Shown here in pieces: positions 2,246-62,204 of a stretch of 64,000 nucleotides of DNA. Below the pieces are notes generated by a model. That model did not search any database. It had not been told where the DNA came from and saw nothing but the letters and a program-made list of their open reading frames with translations. Made by a program: the position numbers and the translations under genes. Source of the DNA: a virus; IMG/VR virus record IMGVR_UViG_3300027971_000044, positions 1-64,000 of that record; one strand, given 5' to 3'. The first letter of the stretch is position 1, and every line of letters starts with the position of its first letter.

Positions 2246-2366
2246 CTCATTACTTGGGTCTATATTAGATCTAATCTACCTTGGCTCATATTACCTATTA
2301 GTTCCATTTGTATCTCTGGTTATATTATCTTCTATGGTTGTATATATAAAAAGCTTTAAACTTTAA
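2238..2366 (+). CDS. 42 aa membrane peptide
   Basis: MYNSLLGSILDLIYLGSYYLLVPFVSLVILSSMVVYIKSFKL*; overlaps previous stop. Confidence 0.45.
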   Translation: MYNSLLGSILDLIYLGSYYLLVPFVSLVILSSMVVYIKSFKL

Positions 2367-2561
2367 TTCTCCCGCCCTTTTCTGGGGTCTTAGTATCGGA
2401 GATACCAATTATGCCCTGTTAGGGCTTTAGAACCCTCATAGAGGGCTTATATGGCATATTCTGAAAATGATCACAGATGCTAAAATGGCTCTTCTATCGA
2501 CGCAGCACTTTTTTCGCACTAATTGCACTATATGTCCGTATTGTCTATATACTATCTATAT

Positions 2562-2599
2562 AAAAGAAAAAATCCCAATCAGAGGCGGATCCGATTGGG
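2562..2599 (-). terminator. intrinsic terminator
   Basis: CCCAATCGG...CTGATTGGG stem followed by ATTTTTTCTTTT on the minus strand. Confidence 0.75.
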
Positions 2600-2657
2600 C
2601 TTTTCTAGTGTATTACTACACATTATATAGGGAGACATTGCTGCCGTCACCTACACA
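2562..2657 (-). ncRNA. candidate ~95 nt structured small RNA
   Basis: Consensus promoter immediately upstream, two GNRA-capped hairpins, intrinsic terminator, no credible ORF. Confidence 0.6.
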
Positions 2658-2662
2658 TCTTA

Positions 2663-2691
2663 ATTGTAATATGGATTATTTTCTATGTCAA
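2663..2691 (-). promoter_or_regulatory. consensus sigma70/SigA promoter
   Basis: TTGACA-N17-TACAAT on the minus strand. Confidence 0.75.
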
Positions 2692-2698
2692 GCATTTA

Positions 2699-2890
2699 CT
2701 ACCATTTTCCAATAGGGCATTTTGCATCTAGTAGTCTTGTTTTCATTTCCATGAAACACCCGCATTTATTGCATTGTTTTGTAAATTGAATTAAATTTTC
2801 GCAAGAAAGACAAGATTGCATTCTTTCTTTTTGTATCTCTTCAGAAGACCTAGGTGCATCTGAATCAAACAAGTCCCAAGGTTTAACCAT
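2699..2890 (-). CDS. Cys-rich small phage protein
   Basis: CLSC...CNKCGCFM..K..L..AKCPIGKW; likely start MVKPW at 2890, overlapping upstream stop. Confidence 0.75.
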   Translation of the reverse strand: MVKPWDLFDSDAPRSSEEIQKERMQSCLSCENLIQFTKQCNKCGCFMEMKTRLLDAKCPIGKW

Positions 2891-4109: not shown

Positions 4110-4131
4110 GCCAGTCAACCAGAAAGAAAAC

Positions 4132-5136
4132 ATGAATATATCTTATTATACTATTCAGTCGGGGCTTAATCCCGCAGTTGGCTATGGCTATGCAGGAAAG
4201 AATATAGTTAAATCTTTAAATAAACTTGGGCATAATATAACATTTGCTGATCCTAAAGCTGATATTCAATTAAGCTTTACTCAGCCACAACATTTTAAGC
4301 TACATAGAAAACAATATCAGATTTCATATACTCCGTGGGAATCTACAGAGATGAAGCCAGAGTGGGTTGAAAGATTTAATGCGTGTGATGAAGTCTGGAC
4401 AACATCTGACTGGTGTGCTAAAGTATTTAAAGACAATGGAATAACTAAACCAATATATGTTTATCCACATGGGATTGAAAGCATCTGGGTACCTAAAAAA
4501 AGATTTGTTCAAAAAGGAACACCCTTAAAGTTTTTACATATTGGAGAGCCTTCTCCAAGAAAAGACGGGCAACTAGTAGTAAATACATTCATAAAACTAT
4601 TTGGCAATAATCCAGACTATCACTTAACAATTAAAGCTCATAAGTTTAGTACTATTAGAGTATATGATAATGAAGATAGCATTATTGGTCTTCCCCACGA
4701 ACTTTATAGTAATATAGATATGATTACAGATGAGATTAACGAAGAGCATCTTGTAAAGCTTTATCACGATCATCATGTTTTAGTTTATCCTACATGGGGA
4801 GAAGGTTTTGGCTTTATTCCTTTACAAGGATTAGCAACTGGTATGCCAGTAATATCAACATATGATTGGTCTCACTATATGGACTACATGGGACCACTTA
4901 AGTTAAAGTCTAAACTTACAAATGAGACTATGCCAAACTTTATATCAGATGGACATATAGGAAAAATGTTTAAACCAGATGCAAAACATTTAGAAGAGTT
5001 GATGTTAGAAGTTTCAAGTAACTATAATGCTTACTCTGGATATTATTTTGCTCAGTCAACCGAAATACATGAAAAGTATAATTGGGATCAGTTGACCAAG
5101 AAAGCATTTGAACATTTAGTAGAAAAATTTAATTAG
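4132..5136 (+). CDS. GT-B fold glycosyltransferase (GT4 family)
   Basis: GYG motif, PHGI, PRKD, EGFGFIPLQGLATGMPVI. Confidence 0.85.
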   Translation: MNISYYTIQSGLNPAVGYGYAGKNIVKSLNKLGHNITFADPKADIQLSFTQPQHFKLHRKQYQISYTPWESTEMKPEWVERFNACDEVWTTSDWCAKVFKDNGITKPIYVYPHGIESIWVPKKRFVQKGTPLKFLHIGEPSPRKDGQLVVNTFIKLFGNNPDYHLTIKAHKFSTIRVYDNEDSIIGLPHELYSNIDMITDEINEEHLVKLYHDHHVLVYPTWGEGFGFIPLQGLATGMPVISTYDWSHYMDYMGPLKLKSKLTNETMPNFISDGHIGKMFKPDAKHLEELMLEVSSNYNAYSGYYFAQSTEIHEKYNWDQLTKKAFEHLVEKFN

Positions 5137-5225
5137 CCCTTCCCCTTTTAATCATTCTTTGGTAGAATAGGATCTTCACACTAAATTTAAATTAACCGCT
5201 AGGCGGAGAAAAAAGGTATTATAAA

Positions 5226-7160
5226 ATGTCTAAGACTATTGCAAACCCATACGAAAATTTTATTGCGTTATCAAGATATGCAAGATGGATATCAGAAGAT
5301 AATCGCCGTGAGACATGGGGTGAGACAGTAGATAGATATTTTGACTTCATGTTAAACCATCTAAAACAGAATTACAACTATATTCCAAATGAAAAGCTTG
5401 TAGCGGAATTAAAAGACGGTGTATTTCAGAGAAACGTCATGCCTTCTATGCGTTCTGTGATGACTTCAGGAGCAGCACTAGAAAGAGATAATGTTGCAGG
5501 ATATAACTGTGCATTTCTTCCAGTTGACTCTGCACGTTCATTTGATGAAACCATGTATATACTTATGTGCGGTACAGGAGTAGGATTCTCTGTTGAGTAT
5601 AAATATATTAATAAGCTTCCTGCCGTTCCAGAATCATTGGAGAAGTCAACTACTGTAATTACAGTAGAAGATTCAAAGCAAGGCTGGGCAAAAGCATACC
5701 GTGAGTTGCTTGCACTACTCTGGTCAGGACAGATTCCAGCAATCGATGTTTCTAAGGTGCGTCCCGCAGGCGCAAGACTTAAGACAATGGGTGGAAGATC
5801 ATCTGGACCACAACCACTTATTAATTTATTTGATTTTACAATTGCAAAGTTTAAAGGCGCTACAGGAAGAAACCTTAAGCCAATTGAATGCCACGATATA
5901 ATGTGCAAGATTGGTGAAGTAGTTGTTGTAGGCGGAGTTCGCCGATCAGCAATGATTTCCCTTTCTAACATTAACGATATCGAGATGGCACAGGCTAAGT
6001 CAGGCAACTGGTGGGAAGCCAATACACAACGTGCTTTATCTAATAACTCTGTTGCGTACTCACGCAAGCCAGACATGGAGCAATTTATTGCAGAATGGAA
6101 ATCTCTATATGATTCAAAGTCAGGAGAACGAGGTATATACAATGTGGCCGCAGCTCAAGCCCAAGCAGCCAAGTATGGAAGAAGAGATCCAGATATACAC
6201 TATGGAACTAACCCGTGCTCAGAGATTATTTTACGTCCTTATCAGTTTTGTAACCTTTCAGAAGTCGTACTACGTGAGAATGATACAAAGAAAGAAATTG
6301 AACGCAAGGTTGAACTTGCAACTATTCTTGGAACGTGGCAGTCAACGCTTACAGACTTTAAATATCTTCGCAAGATCTGGAAAGACAATACAGAAGAAGA
6401 GCGCCTGCTAGGTGTTTCTTTAACTGGACAATTTGGACACAAGTTTATGTCAGGTAAAGAAGACCTTGTTTCACTAGAAGATTTCTTGATGACTCTTAGA
6501 GAATTAGCAAGAGCAAAGAATAAAGATGAGGCTGGGAAAATTGGGATTCCTGAGTCTGCCGCTATTACATGTGTAAAGCCATCAGGAACAGTATCTCAAT
6601 TGGTCGGGGTATCTTCAGGAATGCATGCTTGGCATTCTCCATATTACATTCGTACAGTACGTGGGGCAAAGGGAGATCCAATCTCTACATTTTTGAAGGA
6701 AGTCGGAATTCCTGTAGAAGATGATGTTATGAAGCCAAACGATACATACGTATTCTCATTTCCAATTAAGGCACCAGAGGGTGCAATTGTTAGAAATGAT
6801 TTAACTGCTATTGAACACCTAAACATTTGGTTGGTTTACCAACGTGCATGGTGTGAGCACAAACCATCTATTACCGTTTCTGTAAAAGAGGATGAATGGA
6901 TGGAAGTTGGTGCTTGGGTATATAAGCATTTTGATGAGGTTTCTGGAATTTCATTCCTGCCGCATTCAGACCACTCATATAAGCAGGCTCCTTACCAAGA
7001 AGTAGATAAGGCAGAATATGACGCTCTTGTTGAAAAGATGCCAAAGGATATCCGATGGGAAGATTTATCTTTTTATGAGACAGAAGATGGCACTTCTACC
7101 AATGCCACGCTTGCCTGCAGCTCAGATGGAAATTGTGAGCTTGTGGATATTTCTGCTTAG
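5226..7160 (+). CDS. nrdJ: class II adenosylcobalamin-dependent ribonucleotide reductase
   Basis: RRETWGETVDR, GYNC, GTGVGFS, GTNPCSEI, FCNLSEV, TCVKPSGT, C-terminal CSSDGNCE pair; no nrdB nearby. Confidence 0.93.
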   Translation: MSKTIANPYENFIALSRYARWISEDNRRETWGETVDRYFDFMLNHLKQNYNYIPNEKLVAELKDGVFQRNVMPSMRSVMTSGAALERDNVAGYNCAFLPVDSARSFDETMYILMCGTGVGFSVEYKYINKLPAVPESLEKSTTVITVEDSKQGWAKAYRELLALLWSGQIPAIDVSKVRPAGARLKTMGGRSSGPQPLINLFDFTIAKFKGATGRNLKPIECHDIMCKIGEVVVVGGVRRSAMISLSNINDIEMAQAKSGNWWEANTQRALSNNSVAYSRKPDMEQFIAEWKSLYDSKSGERGIYNVAAAQAQAAKYGRRDPDIHYGTNPCSEIILRPYQFCNLSEVVLRENDTKKEIERKVELATILGTWQSTLTDFKYLRKIWKDNTEEERLLGVSLTGQFGHKFMSGKEDLVSLEDFLMTLRELARAKNKDEAGKIGIPESAAITCVKPSGTVSQLVGVSSGMHAWHSPYYIRTVRGAKGDPISTFLKEVGIPVEDDVMKPNDTYVFSFPIKAPEGAIVRNDLTAIEHLNIWLVYQRAWCEHKPSITVSVKEDEWMEVGAWVYKHFDEVSGISFLPHSDHSYKQAPYQEVDKAEYDALVEKMPKDIRWEDLSFYETEDGTSTNATLACSSDGNCELVDISA

Positions 7161-10236: not shown

Positions 10237-12519
10237 ATGGCAATTAGAATTCAACTTAGAAGAGATACCGCAGCAAATTGGGTATCAAGCAATCCAGTCT
10301 TACGTCAAGGTGAAATTGGTATTGAAACAGATACCTTACAGATGAAGCTTGGCAACGGAACAAGCACATGGACACAAATAACATCCTACATGAACTTGGT
10401 TCCAGATGGTAACTTAACAATCGGGGACTATGTAATGGTCAACGATATTGGAGCATCACTTGGAGTTGTAGGTTTAGATAGTAGCAAAAATGCCCTAATC
10501 CCAGGATCTTCTATTATAGTAGAAGGCGCAACAGATAATTCATTTGAAACAACCCTTACAGTAATAGATCCAACAGCAGATAGAACAATTACATTTAAAA
10601 ATGCTGATGGAACAGTAGCGTTTGTAGCAGATATCCCTACAACTACAGATGCACTTGCAGAAGGCGCAACAAATAAGTATTTCTCAGATGAGCGGGCACA
10701 AGATGCTGTAGCAAATTCACTAGCAGCAGGTACCCATACAAATATTACAGTCACATATAATGATGCAGCAAATTCACTAAGTCTTGCCGCCGCTCCAGGA
10801 TATGTAGATGAGCAAGCAGTAGATGCAGTAGCTGCAGCGTTAGCTGCAGGAACACACACAAATATTTCAGTATCGTATAATGATGCTGGCAATGCAATTT
10901 CATTAACAGGTGCACAAACCTATAACGATGAAAATGCACAGGATGCAATCGGAAACAACCTAGGCACAGGACTATCATATAATGATACAACTGGTGCTAT
11001 ATCAGTAGATACATCAACAATTCAGGCACGAGTAGCAAATATTACAGATACAGAGATTGGATATCTTGATGGAGTAACATCTGCAATTCAAACACAGATT
11101 AATGCTAAAGCCCCTATTGCCTCACCAACATTTACAGGAACTGTTTCTGGAGTTACTGCAACACATGTTGGACTTGGTAATGTTGATAATACTTCAGATG
11201 CTAATAAGCCAGTTTCAACTGCTACACAAACAGCACTTGATTTTAAAGCCCCACTTGCTTCTCCAGCATTAACTGGAATTCCAACGGCGCCAACAGCAGT
11301 TTCTTCAACAAATACAACACAGGTTGCAACAACCGCATATGTTAAGTCTGTAGTATCAGATCTGACAAATGGCGCAGGTGCAGCATATGATACGCTAAAA
11401 GAATTACAAGATTTAATAATTGCAGATGAAGGAGCAGTATCTTCATTAACCACATTAGTTGGAACTAAAGCACCTATTGCTTCTCCAACATTTACAGGTA
11501 CAGTTTCAGGTATTACAAAGTCAATGGTTGGCTTAGGAAACGTAGACAATACAACAGATGCAGGAAAACCTGTCTCAACAGCAACTCAAACAGCCCTTGA
11601 TCTCAAACTTGCTTCTGCTACAGCAGCATCAACCTATGCACCAATTGCTTCTCCAACATTTACAGGCACAGTGTCTGGAATTACAAAAACAATGGTGGGC
11701 CTAGGAAACGTTGATAACACAACTGATGCAGCCAAACCCGTTTCTACAGCAACCCAGACAGCACTTGACCTTAAGCTTGCATCAGCAACAGCTGCTACAA
11801 CTTACGAAACAATTACTAACGTAGCATTAAAGGCACCAATTGCTTCTCCAACATTTACTGGTACAGTATCTGGTATAACAGCGACAATGGTAGGACTCGG
11901 TAGCGTAGATAATACTTCAGATGCAGCCAAACCAATTTCTACAGCAACACAAACAGCATTAGATGCACGGATTGCAAAATCATTAGTTGATGCTAAGGGA
12001 GATCTTATAGTAGCGTCTGCAGATAATACTGTAGCTCGACTTGGAGTCGGAACAAATGGATATTTGCTCACAGCTAATTCAGCTGCTACAAATGGAGTTG
12101 AATGGGCGGCAGCACCAGTAAGCCTTCCTTCTCAAACAGGAAATTCAGGAAAGTACCTAACTACAGATGGAACATCTGCAACATGGGGAACTCTAGTAGT
12201 ACCAATCTCAACTGGAACAGTAACTGTAAATCAGAACACTGCACAGGATGTAGATACAACAGCATTATCAGCATTTACAAGTATTGAATATATGGTCTCA
12301 ATTAAACAGGGATCAAAGACTAGAACATCTAAAGTAATTCTACAAACCGATGGAACATCAGTAGATATGACAGAGTTTGCAATTACAGAAACAGGCGGGA
12401 CACTAGCAGGAGTTGTAGTTTCAGCAACTACAGCATCTTCAAATGGTAAATTGCAGGTAACTGTAACAGATGCACTAAGTACAAATGCAACAGTAAAATT
12501 TAGCAAGATAGCGCTTTAA
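10237..12519 (+). CDS. tail fibre with Mtd N-terminal-like domain
   Basis: IRIQLRRDTAANW.SSNPVL..GEIGIETDT..MKLGNG; internal repeats. Confidence 0.8.
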   Translation: MAIRIQLRRDTAANWVSSNPVLRQGEIGIETDTLQMKLGNGTSTWTQITSYMNLVPDGNLTIGDYVMVNDIGASLGVVGLDSSKNALIPGSSIIVEGATDNSFETTLTVIDPTADRTITFKNADGTVAFVADIPTTTDALAEGATNKYFSDERAQDAVANSLAAGTHTNITVTYNDAANSLSLAAAPGYVDEQAVDAVAAALAAGTHTNISVSYNDAGNAISLTGAQTYNDENAQDAIGNNLGTGLSYNDTTGAISVDTSTIQARVANITDTEIGYLDGVTSAIQTQINAKAPIASPTFTGTVSGVTATHVGLGNVDNTSDANKPVSTATQTALDFKAPLASPALTGIPTAPTAVSSTNTTQVATTAYVKSVVSDLTNGAGAAYDTLKELQDLIIADEGAVSSLTTLVGTKAPIASPTFTGTVSGITKSMVGLGNVDNTTDAGKPVSTATQTALDLKLASATAASTYAPIASPTFTGTVSGITKTMVGLGNVDNTTDAAKPVSTATQTALDLKLASATAATTYETITNVALKAPIASPTFTGTVSGITATMVGLGSVDNTSDAAKPISTATQTALDARIAKSLVDAKGDLIVASADNTVARLGVGTNGYLLTANSAATNGVEWAAAPVSLPSQTGNSGKYLTTDGTSATWGTLVVPISTGTVTVNQNTAQDVDTTALSAFTSIEYMVSIKQGSKTRTSKVILQTDGTSVDMTEFAITETGGTLAGVVVSATTASSNGKLQVTVTDALSTNATVKFSKIAL
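11107..11965 (+). repeat. four copies of a ~45 aa coding repeat
   Basis: APIASPTFTGTVSG.T...VGLG.VDNT.DA.KP.STATQTALD at about 11107, 11468, 11638 and 11831. Confidence 0.85.
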
Positions 12520-61776: not shown

Positions 61777-62204
61777 ACGATAAGATACACAAGGTAATTA
61801 AATCATCTCGATCAAAGGATGAGATAGTCGCTTGGTGCTACCCAGATAAAAAGAGAGTGATGTATTCTTACTCTCAAGTTGAAAAATATATGGGTAAAGC
61901 TTATGCAATGAGGGATGTTTCAGCATTATTAAATAAACATACTGTTACTTTACATGATTATATTTTGGAGGGCAAGATAAAGGCTCCCCAAAAGATATAT
62001 CCTATAGGAGATCCAGATAATAAGAACTGGTCTAAGTATATGTTTTGTGAGAAGGATATATTAGAGATACATGAGTTTATATTAGATTCAGGTCATTCGG
62101 GAAATGTTCCTTCAAGAACAGAGCTCTTAGGGCTTCTCAAACACAACATTATATTGTATACTAAGACAGACAGCGGCTTCATCCCAGTCTGGAAGGCGGA
62201 GTAA
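61722..62204 (+). CDS. HTH (MerR-like) DNA-binding protein
   Basis: YAMRDVSALLNKHTVTLHDYILEGKI..P. Confidence 0.65.
   Translation: MARKKRNSNLKKLRYFFLNDKIHKVIKSSRSKDEIVAWCYPDKKRVMYSYSQVEKYMGKAYAMRDVSALLNKHTVTLHDYILEGKIKAPQKIYPIGDPDNKNWSKYMFCEKDILEIHEFILDSGHSGNVPSRTELLGLLKHNIILYTKTDSGFIPVWKAE

Follow-up and report, generated by a model that had tools for sequence, protein, structure and literature searches.

A conserved small RNA gene of uncultured freshwater phages whose terminator loop may pair with the ribosome-binding site of the phage polymerase gene

Introduction

In Firmicutes, C-rich loops of the RsaE-type small RNAs (sRNAs) and of Staphylococcus aureus RNAIII, a chromosomal, multi-domain RNA of 514 nucleotides (nt) that carries them in its H14 terminator and in H7/H13, pair with Shine-Dalgarno regions. 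In Actinobacteria, the 6C sRNA is also named B11 (Rfam RF01066). A study of 6C describes C-rich loops that bind G-rich ribosome-binding sites without the chaperones Hfq or ProQ, with dnaB among the targets (PMC6486639). Here we describe a predicted small RNA of about 95 nt, encoded on the minus strand of the IMG/VR virus record IMGVR_UViG_3300027971_000044, and we propose that the loop of its terminator may act in a comparable way on the gene for the phage's DnaE-type polymerase. The whole stretch analysed, referred to below as the window, is the first 64 kb of this 81.5-kb record, which is estimated to be 75% complete.

Several phage systems also provide points of comparison. Lambda OOP, P22 sar and P1/P7 c4 are short phage transcripts that regulate phage genes by base pairing; OOP and sar have their own promoter and terminator and are cis-antisense to the gene they control, and c4 is processed from a longer transcript. 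In lambda pR'-6S-tR' with Q, and with HK022 put, co-directional downstream genes depend on read-through of a terminator. Type III toxin-antitoxin RNAs of the ToxI type consist of tandem RNA repeats followed by a toxin gene, and the promoter-stem-loop cassettes of T4-type phages occur in many copies per genome, where they flank mobile gene cassettes. To our knowledge, very few regulatory RNAs from phages of Actinobacteria are known and, as far as our literature search shows, none has been found so far in the abundant uncultured phages of lakes.

Results

Architecture of the locus

The preliminary description of this DNA, made from its letters alone, had proposed a self-contained small RNA consisting of a TTGACA-17-TACAAT promoter, two hairpins and a terminator on the minus strand. 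Each of these elements was found in place, the unit beginning directly past the stop codon of a DUF6171 gene (2699-2890, minus strand). The parts are listed below.

2691-2686, minus strand: -35 hexamer TTGACA (letters of the sequence and promoter scan)
Between -35 and -10, minus strand: promoter spacer, 17 nt
2668-2663, minus strand: -10 hexamer TACAAT (letters of the sequence and promoter scan)
2562-2656, minus strand: predicted small RNA, about 95 nt (fold and covariance-model match)
2657-2624, minus strand: hairpin 1, with a basal stem, two small 5'-side bulges and an apical GGCA-GCAA-UGUC
2621-2608, minus strand: hairpin 2, GUGUA-GUAA-UACAC, 5 bp with a GUAA cap
2599-2574, minus strand: terminator stem-loop, 10 bp including a conserved G-U pair
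2584-2589, minus strand: terminator loop UCCGCC, the proposed pairing seed
2562-2573, minus strand: terminator U tract

The 5' end of the RNA (about 2656-2660) was inferred from the promoter, and the 3' end was placed in the U tract. Folding of the 95-nt RNA with ViennaRNA returned exactly the three hairpins that had been drawn before, at -35.6 kcal/mol and with a z score of -5.66; none of 200 shuffled sequences was as stable. The terminator stem-loop is single-copy in the window. A promoter scan of 8 kb gave 30 promoter-like sites against 27 expected; two sites matched at 11 of 12 positions, that of the small RNA among them. By itself, then, the promoter match does not exceed chance; the unit stands above chance because it is conserved and covaries in relatives, as described below. 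A second promoter-like site, GTGACG-17-TATAAT, lies inside hairpin 1 (2622-2650, minus strand), and a TATAAT linker between hairpins 1 and 2 is kept in many, not all, sequence types.

The earlier judgement that this is not a tRNA agrees with ARAGORN, which reported no tRNA or tmRNA gene in the window. Its failure to recognise a known family was likewise borne out: comparison with Rfam 15 gave no match at gathering score in the 64-kb window, and seven divergent loci examined at gathering score returned tRNAs only. A sensitive Rfam scan of the window's unit yielded chance-level matches (E value of about 1 or above), and sensitive scans of three versions, this one included, yielded sub-threshold matches only, the best being ctRNA_pGA1 (23.7 vs 45 bits) and NsiR1 (22 vs 39 bits). 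A literature search, with subscription journals and supplements outside its reach, found nothing on this RNA. Judged by these comparisons, the small RNA represents a previously undescribed family of about 95 nt.

Covariation among relatives

A covariance model was built from 29 close versions of the unit together with the proposed structure, and 78 distinct versions were aligned to it; in the window the model matched positions 2563-2661 with 124.2 bits. An alignment fitted to such a model favours the structure put into it, a bias against which independent folds of single sequences guard. Ten divergent versions each folded alone into the same three hairpins, with z scores of -4.5 to -6.8. MAFFT followed by RNAalifold on 42 versions had misaligned the divergent hairpins, so that the terminator alone came out, and was replaced by the single folds and the model-guided alignment.

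In the 78-version alignment, to which all counts out of 78 refer, 98.3% of 2171 pair cells were paired, and 20 of the 29 pairs had changes on both sides (289 cells). No shuffle out of 500 reached any of the observed measures, and controls with slid partners were 32 to 50% paired. Compensatory changes were seen in 13 of 14 pairs of hairpin 1 and in all five pairs of hairpin 2, where 98.9% of cells were paired; relatives thus keep hairpins 1 and 2 with compensatory changes, and not only the terminator. Hairpin 1 also keeps its two 5'-side bulges across sequence types. Both hairpins had been described as GNRA hairpins, which holds for hairpin 2 (64/78) but for hairpin 1 in only 28/78, a C-rich loop of the UCCCAC type being present in about half of the versions. 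The GCAA form of hairpin 1 seen in the window is a minority variant.

The terminator loop reads UCCGCC in 78/78 distinct versions. The same loop is found in six versions that are more distant and in L071/L072 and L079, which have unrelated stems. In distant relatives the lower terminator stem covaries or is replaced, and the apical GGA-UCCGCC-UC(U/C) stays. UCCGCC persists even with a completely different stem, so that constraint within the terminator falls on the loop. A G-U pair in the terminator stem is conserved as well (G-U in 73 versions and G-C in 5), which shows that the constraint acts on the minus-strand RNA.

TTGAC(A/T), an exact spacing of 17 nt and TA(C/T)A(A/C)T were present in 74/78 versions, with 41 different spacer sequences. 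The -10 element was TACAAT in 36 versions, TATACT in 21 and TATAAT in 17, and the remaining 4/78 had a TG-extended -10-like element. Hexamers and spacing are thus kept while the sequence of the spacer varies; what selection preserves here is promoter function. With its own promoter and its own terminator conserved in relatives, the unit is self-contained, as had been claimed. We regard the existence of the gene and its structure as established, and it is very probable that the unit is a genuine gene for a structured RNA with transcription of its own, shared by a large group of uncultured freshwater phages.

The preliminary description had also seen no credible open reading frame. A short frame does exist on the RNA strand: it comprises 9 to 22 codons, ends at a TGA in the 3' arm of the terminator with the residues P(N/I/S)RIRL and, in the window, has 19 codons with AGGUGA 8 nt upstream of its ATG. 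An in-frame ATG occurs in 60/78 versions, among them several otherwise different sequence types, as would be expected if the locus encoded a micro-protein. This explanation is nevertheless barely credible, as 18/78 versions have no in-frame ATG, the N-terminal parts vary in both sequence and length, stable hairpins enclose the start codons, and the invariant nucleotides are without any synonymous variation. The residue changes that do occur follow the fold, Asn/Ile being the coding shadow of a compensatory stem change and Cys/Tyr and Thr/Ile shadowing hairpin 2. The relatives therefore do not support a gene, and the earlier statement needs correcting only in that an ATG frame is present. On the opposite strand, an 82-amino-acid (aa) frame (2467-2715) was rejected, as it reaches at least 60 aa in only 15/78 versions and the indels between sequence types are not multiples of three.

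Genes around the RNA gene

A 27-nt piece of hairpin 1 is present in 20 further virus contigs. The gene upstream of the RNA encodes a 75-aa protein that has at least 259 relatives in IMG/VR, and at least 593 when a divergent homologue is the query. Among the 80 best loci fetched with the 75-aa protein, nhmmer found the unit in 75; of the five others, one reaches the end of its contig, one matches the model weakly and three have a reduced form. Among 79 loci fetched with the divergent homologue, the covariance model found the unit in 74. Here the five non-matches have other genes after the 75-aa homologue and only 237-1072 nt of contig left; in one of them the next promoter follows directly, with no unit in the remaining contig. 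Overall, the unit was found in about 94% of the loci examined.

The unit always lies on the strand of the upstream block, in which a lysozyme-like protein of 212 aa is encoded together with three small ones (in 81 to 96 of 96 loci). What follows downstream is variable: small genes and an HNH gene converging on the unit (a 55-aa gene in 66/96 loci and the HNH gene in 67/96), converging tRNA genes, or co-directional genes, which, where present, have their own extended -10 promoter right past the terminator. Because the next genes converge on the unit in most loci, the unit is not a leader. tRNA genes converge directly on the unit's terminator in L098 (3412-3635, minus strand), L099 (4351-4421, minus strand) and L053 (6059-6284, minus strand), and in such loci the terminator would be expected to end the tRNA transcripts too.

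Insertions were also seen between the 75-aa gene and the RNA. The window has its zinc-ribbon-like DUF6171 gene there, an extra gene that most relatives are without, and RNA-library contigs of relatives skip exactly this stretch (2699-2890). In L101 a 362-aa gene and a 473-aa gene are inserted at the same place (4110-6613); the former is perhaps sulfotransferase-like, a guess made from its sequence, and the latter we take by eye to resemble a cytochrome P450.

Contigs from the RNA libraries of two freshwater/lake metatranscriptome studies (2015 and 2017) lie on 2564-2696, and some of them join the end of the upstream gene to the unit, with joints at 2695. These contigs record presence in RNA libraries and cannot show a discrete 95-nt transcript or its abundance, and stretches without contig cover do not count as evidence. 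Summed contig depth was highest in bins 2552-2639, a measure that cannot rank parts of the unit; RNA libraries may also contain DNA, and conserved stretches gather the contigs of relatives.

These arrangements raise the question of whether the unit is simply the end of the upstream early operon, acting in cis: the hairpins would stabilise the 3' end, the terminator would insulate both ways from converging genes or tRNAs, and the promoter would interfere with incoming transcription, with no role in trans. Such a role would account for a unit that always closes the same co-directional gene block, for the converging genes or tRNA genes that abut its terminator, and for the RNA-library contigs that link the upstream gene end to it. 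It would also suit L071/L072, which keep only one hairpin and the terminator with no obvious promoter, and L036, in which a second copy of the terminator hairpin alone (4442-4518) follows an inserted gene. A terminator or 3' stabiliser, however, needs neither a near-consensus promoter, kept here in 74 of the 78 versions, nor an invariant loop. Moreover, relatives that are without the RNA, described below, have at the same place an ordinary terminator with a different loop, so that termination itself does not require UCCGCC. A purely cis-acting operon end is, in our assessment, distinctly unlikely.

In L036 a similar extended -10 promoter stands behind both terminator copies, and the arrangement looks like cassette insertion by recombination at terminator-promoter junctions. 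The contigs of many loci, the window's own included, end 0.3-2.5 kb downstream of the small RNA, and the homologous gene of cultured relatives is found about 11 kb in from the left end; a hypervariable region or a terminal-repeat boundary may account for the breaks. One could imagine that the stretch is kept as DNA, either by recombination between the conserved core and hypervariable cassettes or as the binding site of a protein on DNA, in which case it would be akin to the promoter-stem-loop cassettes of T4-type phages. The highly variable downstream gene content, the contig breaks, the inserted gene of L036 with a terminator copy and promoter on each flank, and the frequent proximity of an HNH endonuclease gene would all be accommodated. 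The unit is single-copy in the genomes checked, however, and the terminator G-U pair, with G-C as its sole alternative, and the G-U pairs of hairpin 1 are sensible on one RNA strand only. Because unrelated stem DNA can flank the same loop, there is no long tract of identity for recombination, and the compensatory changes in hairpins 1 and 2 place selection at the RNA level. A boundary maintained as DNA is therefore highly improbable.

Outside the virus records, the terminator motif was searched for in 185,579 species genomes and turned up in two contigs, both from metagenome bins and both with the unit: L102 (CAZDRR010000008.1, Saccharibacteria) and L103 (JBBALJ010000155.1, Bacteroidia). These are probably mis-binned phage DNA, as the sequence before the unit is, by eye, similar to the 3' end of the gene that adjoins it in the phages. 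The order of elements is shared by Streptomyces phage Jay2Jay, which has a homologue of the 75-aa gene, a 231-nt gap and a converging HNH gene. Besides TTGACA and a TAGTGCG motif, the gap (11251-11481; L104 3696-3926) contains three GC-rich hairpins, of which the last is terminator-like. Homology to the small RNA cannot be claimed, the covariance model giving 10 bits with an E value of about 1, and the gap may hold an analogous RNA.

Pairing with the dnaE start region

The phage has a dnaE-type gene of 1089 aa, in which the PHP, Pol III alpha and finger domains were confirmed, and DnaB-like and DnaG-like genes adjoin it. Its start region contains AGAGGCGGA 7 nt before the ATG, at genome positions 66128-66136, which is beyond the window and about 63.5 kb from the small RNA. 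This is the exact 9-nt complement of UCCGCCUCU of the terminator hairpin, and UCCGCC is the exact complement of GGCGGA. In pairing with the apical 15-mer, dnaE ranked first of 118 predicted start regions, at -18.2 kcal/mol, and it was the sole start region with an exact complementary run of more than 7 nt. A first target scan, of the window only, had given no start-region target and many GGCGGA Gly-Gly codons.

DnaE relatives were obtained from 80 contigs, at 90-100% identity. GGCGG occupied the Shine-Dalgarno position of dnaE in 42/48 distinct upstream contexts; these contexts form several unrelated classes, one of which has a tRNA upstream, and GGCGG is kept across them. With stricter parsing, GGCGGR ended 5-8 nt before the start in 35/40 contexts and 89/95 loci. 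The ordinary ribosome-binding sites of these phages are GGAGG-like, and GGCGG was found in 4/115, 8/214 and 8/214 start regions of three genomes. At these background counts, which are similar to those of GGTGG, a private tag on many early genes is not supported. In L186 an off-consensus dnaE Shine-Dalgarno site containing GGCGGA lies at 1829-1837. One further site in the window was noted as a secondary candidate.

62194-62200, plus strand: AGGCGGA, a 7-nt complement of UCCGCCU within the ribosome-binding site of the 45-aa gene (at 62204) that heads the replication module

This site is also kept in the relative G016, and a gene beginning MGDRANFGF keeps GGCGGA in both G016 and G036.

Four near-complete relatives are without the RNA: G001, which is complete with terminal repeats, G081, G082 and G083. 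None of the four gave a model match at an E value of up to 1 or contained the apical motif at any position, and the control, G016, had one copy. Their syntenic site holds an extra 61-aa gene and the ordinary terminator with a different loop mentioned above. At dnaE, G001 has GGTCGGGG and G083 has GGTGGTT, both without GGCGG, and GGCGG is present in 17 of the 18 records in which the RNA occurs and the start of dnaE can be read. The trend is weakly consistent with a relaxed constraint on the dnaE site once the RNA had been lost. Records that are fragmentary and gave no model match (35/40, 27/35 and four of five) are uninformative, because most of them do not reach the region of the RNA.

The preliminary description had suggested an abundant regulatory or decoy RNA, such as a protein sponge, an antitoxin mimic or an anti-defence RNA; the present evidence points instead to base pairing through the invariant terminator loop. 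An alternative account of the invariant apex is that the RNA binds a host or phage protein, as a decoy, sponge or scaffold, with apical GGA-UCCGCC-UC as the site recognised, hairpins 1 and 2 adding contacts and the GGCGGA match being coincidence. A loop and three closing pairs that are letter-invariant while the rest of the stem changes fit a protein site as well as a pairing seed. The unusual pair of 5'-side bulges kept in hairpin 1 across types and the constant position of the RNA behind the same block of small proteins of unknown function are also in keeping with a protein partner. No RNA-binding domain was found in the neighbouring proteins, however, and no candidate binding protein has been proposed. 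This account also leaves unexplained both the GGCGG at dnaE in 42 of the 48 contexts and the rank of dnaE as the top pairing site in the genome. We consider it unlikely, though the least so of the alternatives to pairing with dnaE.

Several observations weigh against pairing between the loop and dnaE. G081 and G082, which are near-identical to each other at the site, keep GGCGGAG at dnaE without having the RNA, and G065 has the RNA with GGGAGGA at dnaE. The association is weak (17/18 vs 2/4, one-sided Fisher test, P of about 0.07), and the lineages compared are related and do not count as independent. A single step separates GGCGG from the canonical GGAGG, start regions contain GGTGG about as often, and a weak Shine-Dalgarno site at dnaE could have been selected for other reasons. 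GGCGGA is also abundant as Gly-Gly codons in fibre genes. The core complementarity is only 6 nt (7-9 nt with flanks), the flanks lying inside the stem, and no covariation between loop and target can be seen because the loop never varies. Finally, the RNA evidence consists of contigs on a conserved stretch that attracts those of relatives, the transcript ends are predicted ones, and the actinobacterial host is surmised solely from the nearest cultured phages.

A second element downstream

A further conserved stretch lies downstream of the RNA and always on the same strand.

2345-2545, minus strand: second conserved non-coding element, structure partly resolved

Three AGTGC repeats (about 2488-2545), spaced about one helical turn apart, are followed by four hairpins (about 2345-2470) with some compensatory changes, and the element ends in an invariant GGGCGGGAG. 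No clear consensus structure was obtained for it. The distance to the RNA is 2-33 nt or, where co-directional genes are inserted between the two, 0.8-2.9 kb; further examples are at 1952-2132 in L003 and about 6230-6400 in L082. RNA-library contigs cover 2341-2458. The GGCGG of this element could pair with the loop of the RNA through five G-C and two G-U pairs, and the two elements may be linked.

The phage and its host

The window has a G+C content of about 38% and encodes tailed-phage proteins, including a portal, a protease, a ribonucleotide reductase and fibre proteins. The portal is 58-60% identical to those of Streptomyces phages of the Stanwilliamsviridae, the nearest cultured phages, and the 75-aa neighbour protein matched 95 records among cultured phages, all of them Streptomyces phages. 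The host of the group is therefore likely to be actinobacterial. A blastn search of GenBank phages with 1.8 kb around the small-RNA unit gave no match. The sequencing runs that contain part of the stretch are freshwater/lake metatranscriptomes and one wastewater run; contigs of four of these runs were placed on the stretch, and the small shares in 12 of these runs are not evidence of habitat.

Discussion

The mechanism that we propose, tentatively and at somewhat less than even probability, is that the C-rich loop of the terminator base-pairs with ribosome-binding sites containing GGCGGA, above all the one of the phage polymerase, and thereby tunes translation. Host RNA polymerase would transcribe the RNA from the near-consensus promoter and stop at the RNA's own terminator, as the sequence of the unit predicts. 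Hairpins 1 and 2 are kept as shapes and the terminator apex GGA-UCCGCC-UC letter for letter, and on phage mRNAs the UCCGCC loop would base-pair with Shine-Dalgarno sites of the G-rich sequence GGCGGA. The site before the DnaE-type replicative polymerase would be the main candidate, and pairing there would tune translation of the polymerase, most simply by repression. This mode of action would be like that of the chaperone-independent 6C sRNA of Actinobacteria, which also works through C-rich loops. The pairing itself, the direction of its effect and its timing are what we infer here.

A broader version of this proposal may be envisaged, and we put it forward as rather doubtful. In hundreds of freshwater actinophages, the off-consensus GGCGGA at the polymerase and a few other genes and the complementary loop of an early RNA would form a private lock and key with which the phage gates the start or level of its own replication, and the neighbouring element ending in GGGCGGGAG would possibly be a built-in sponge.

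The RNA is widespread, is unusually well defined by covariation and is present in lake RNA libraries. If the proposed pairing is true, it would offer a simple case, open to testing, in which a virus uses RNA to hold back its own replication, and the chaperone-free action of C-rich loops, a mechanism of bacterial chromosomes, would be extended to phages. Whether or not the target is right, the family can be entered in Rfam and used to annotate freshwater viromes.

Set beside the phage systems outlined in the Introduction, the unit differs from each. Unlike the cassettes of T4-type phages, it has one copy in the window and one in G016, and only L036 has a second, terminator-only copy by an inserted gene. 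Unlike ToxI, it is a single copy with variable downstream genes and is not part of a tandem array. The genes after it converge in most loci or else have their own extended -10 promoter, in contrast to the genes downstream of antitermination cassettes. It also differs from OOP and sar in that no conserved gene lies opposite the RNA, the opposite frame of at least 60 aa being confined to the 15 versions noted above, and there is no sequence similarity to them.

With RNAIII and the RsaE-type sRNAs the unit would share the use of a C-rich terminator loop against a Shine-Dalgarno site, which is here a proposal. The motif is UCCGCC here and UCCC there, there is no homology, and the would-be targets are phage genes. 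The resemblance to the 6C sRNA is one of form and of proposed mechanism. By homology the small RNA is not a member of the 6C family: the 6C model stayed below gathering score in the window and in seven divergent loci and was not among the matches listed for three versions at an E value of up to 10. It is also encoded by phages, as its virus records indicate, whereas 6C is found on actinobacterial chromosomes, the host phylum here being a likely one. Its loops have four Cs interrupted by G or A instead of runs of six Cs, and its proposed seed is the loop of the terminator. Like 6C, however, it is about 90-100 nt long and highly structured; it has a C-rich loop (UCCGCC) and, in about half of the versions, a second one of the UCCCAC type; and its candidate target is the G-rich Shine-Dalgarno site of a replication gene.

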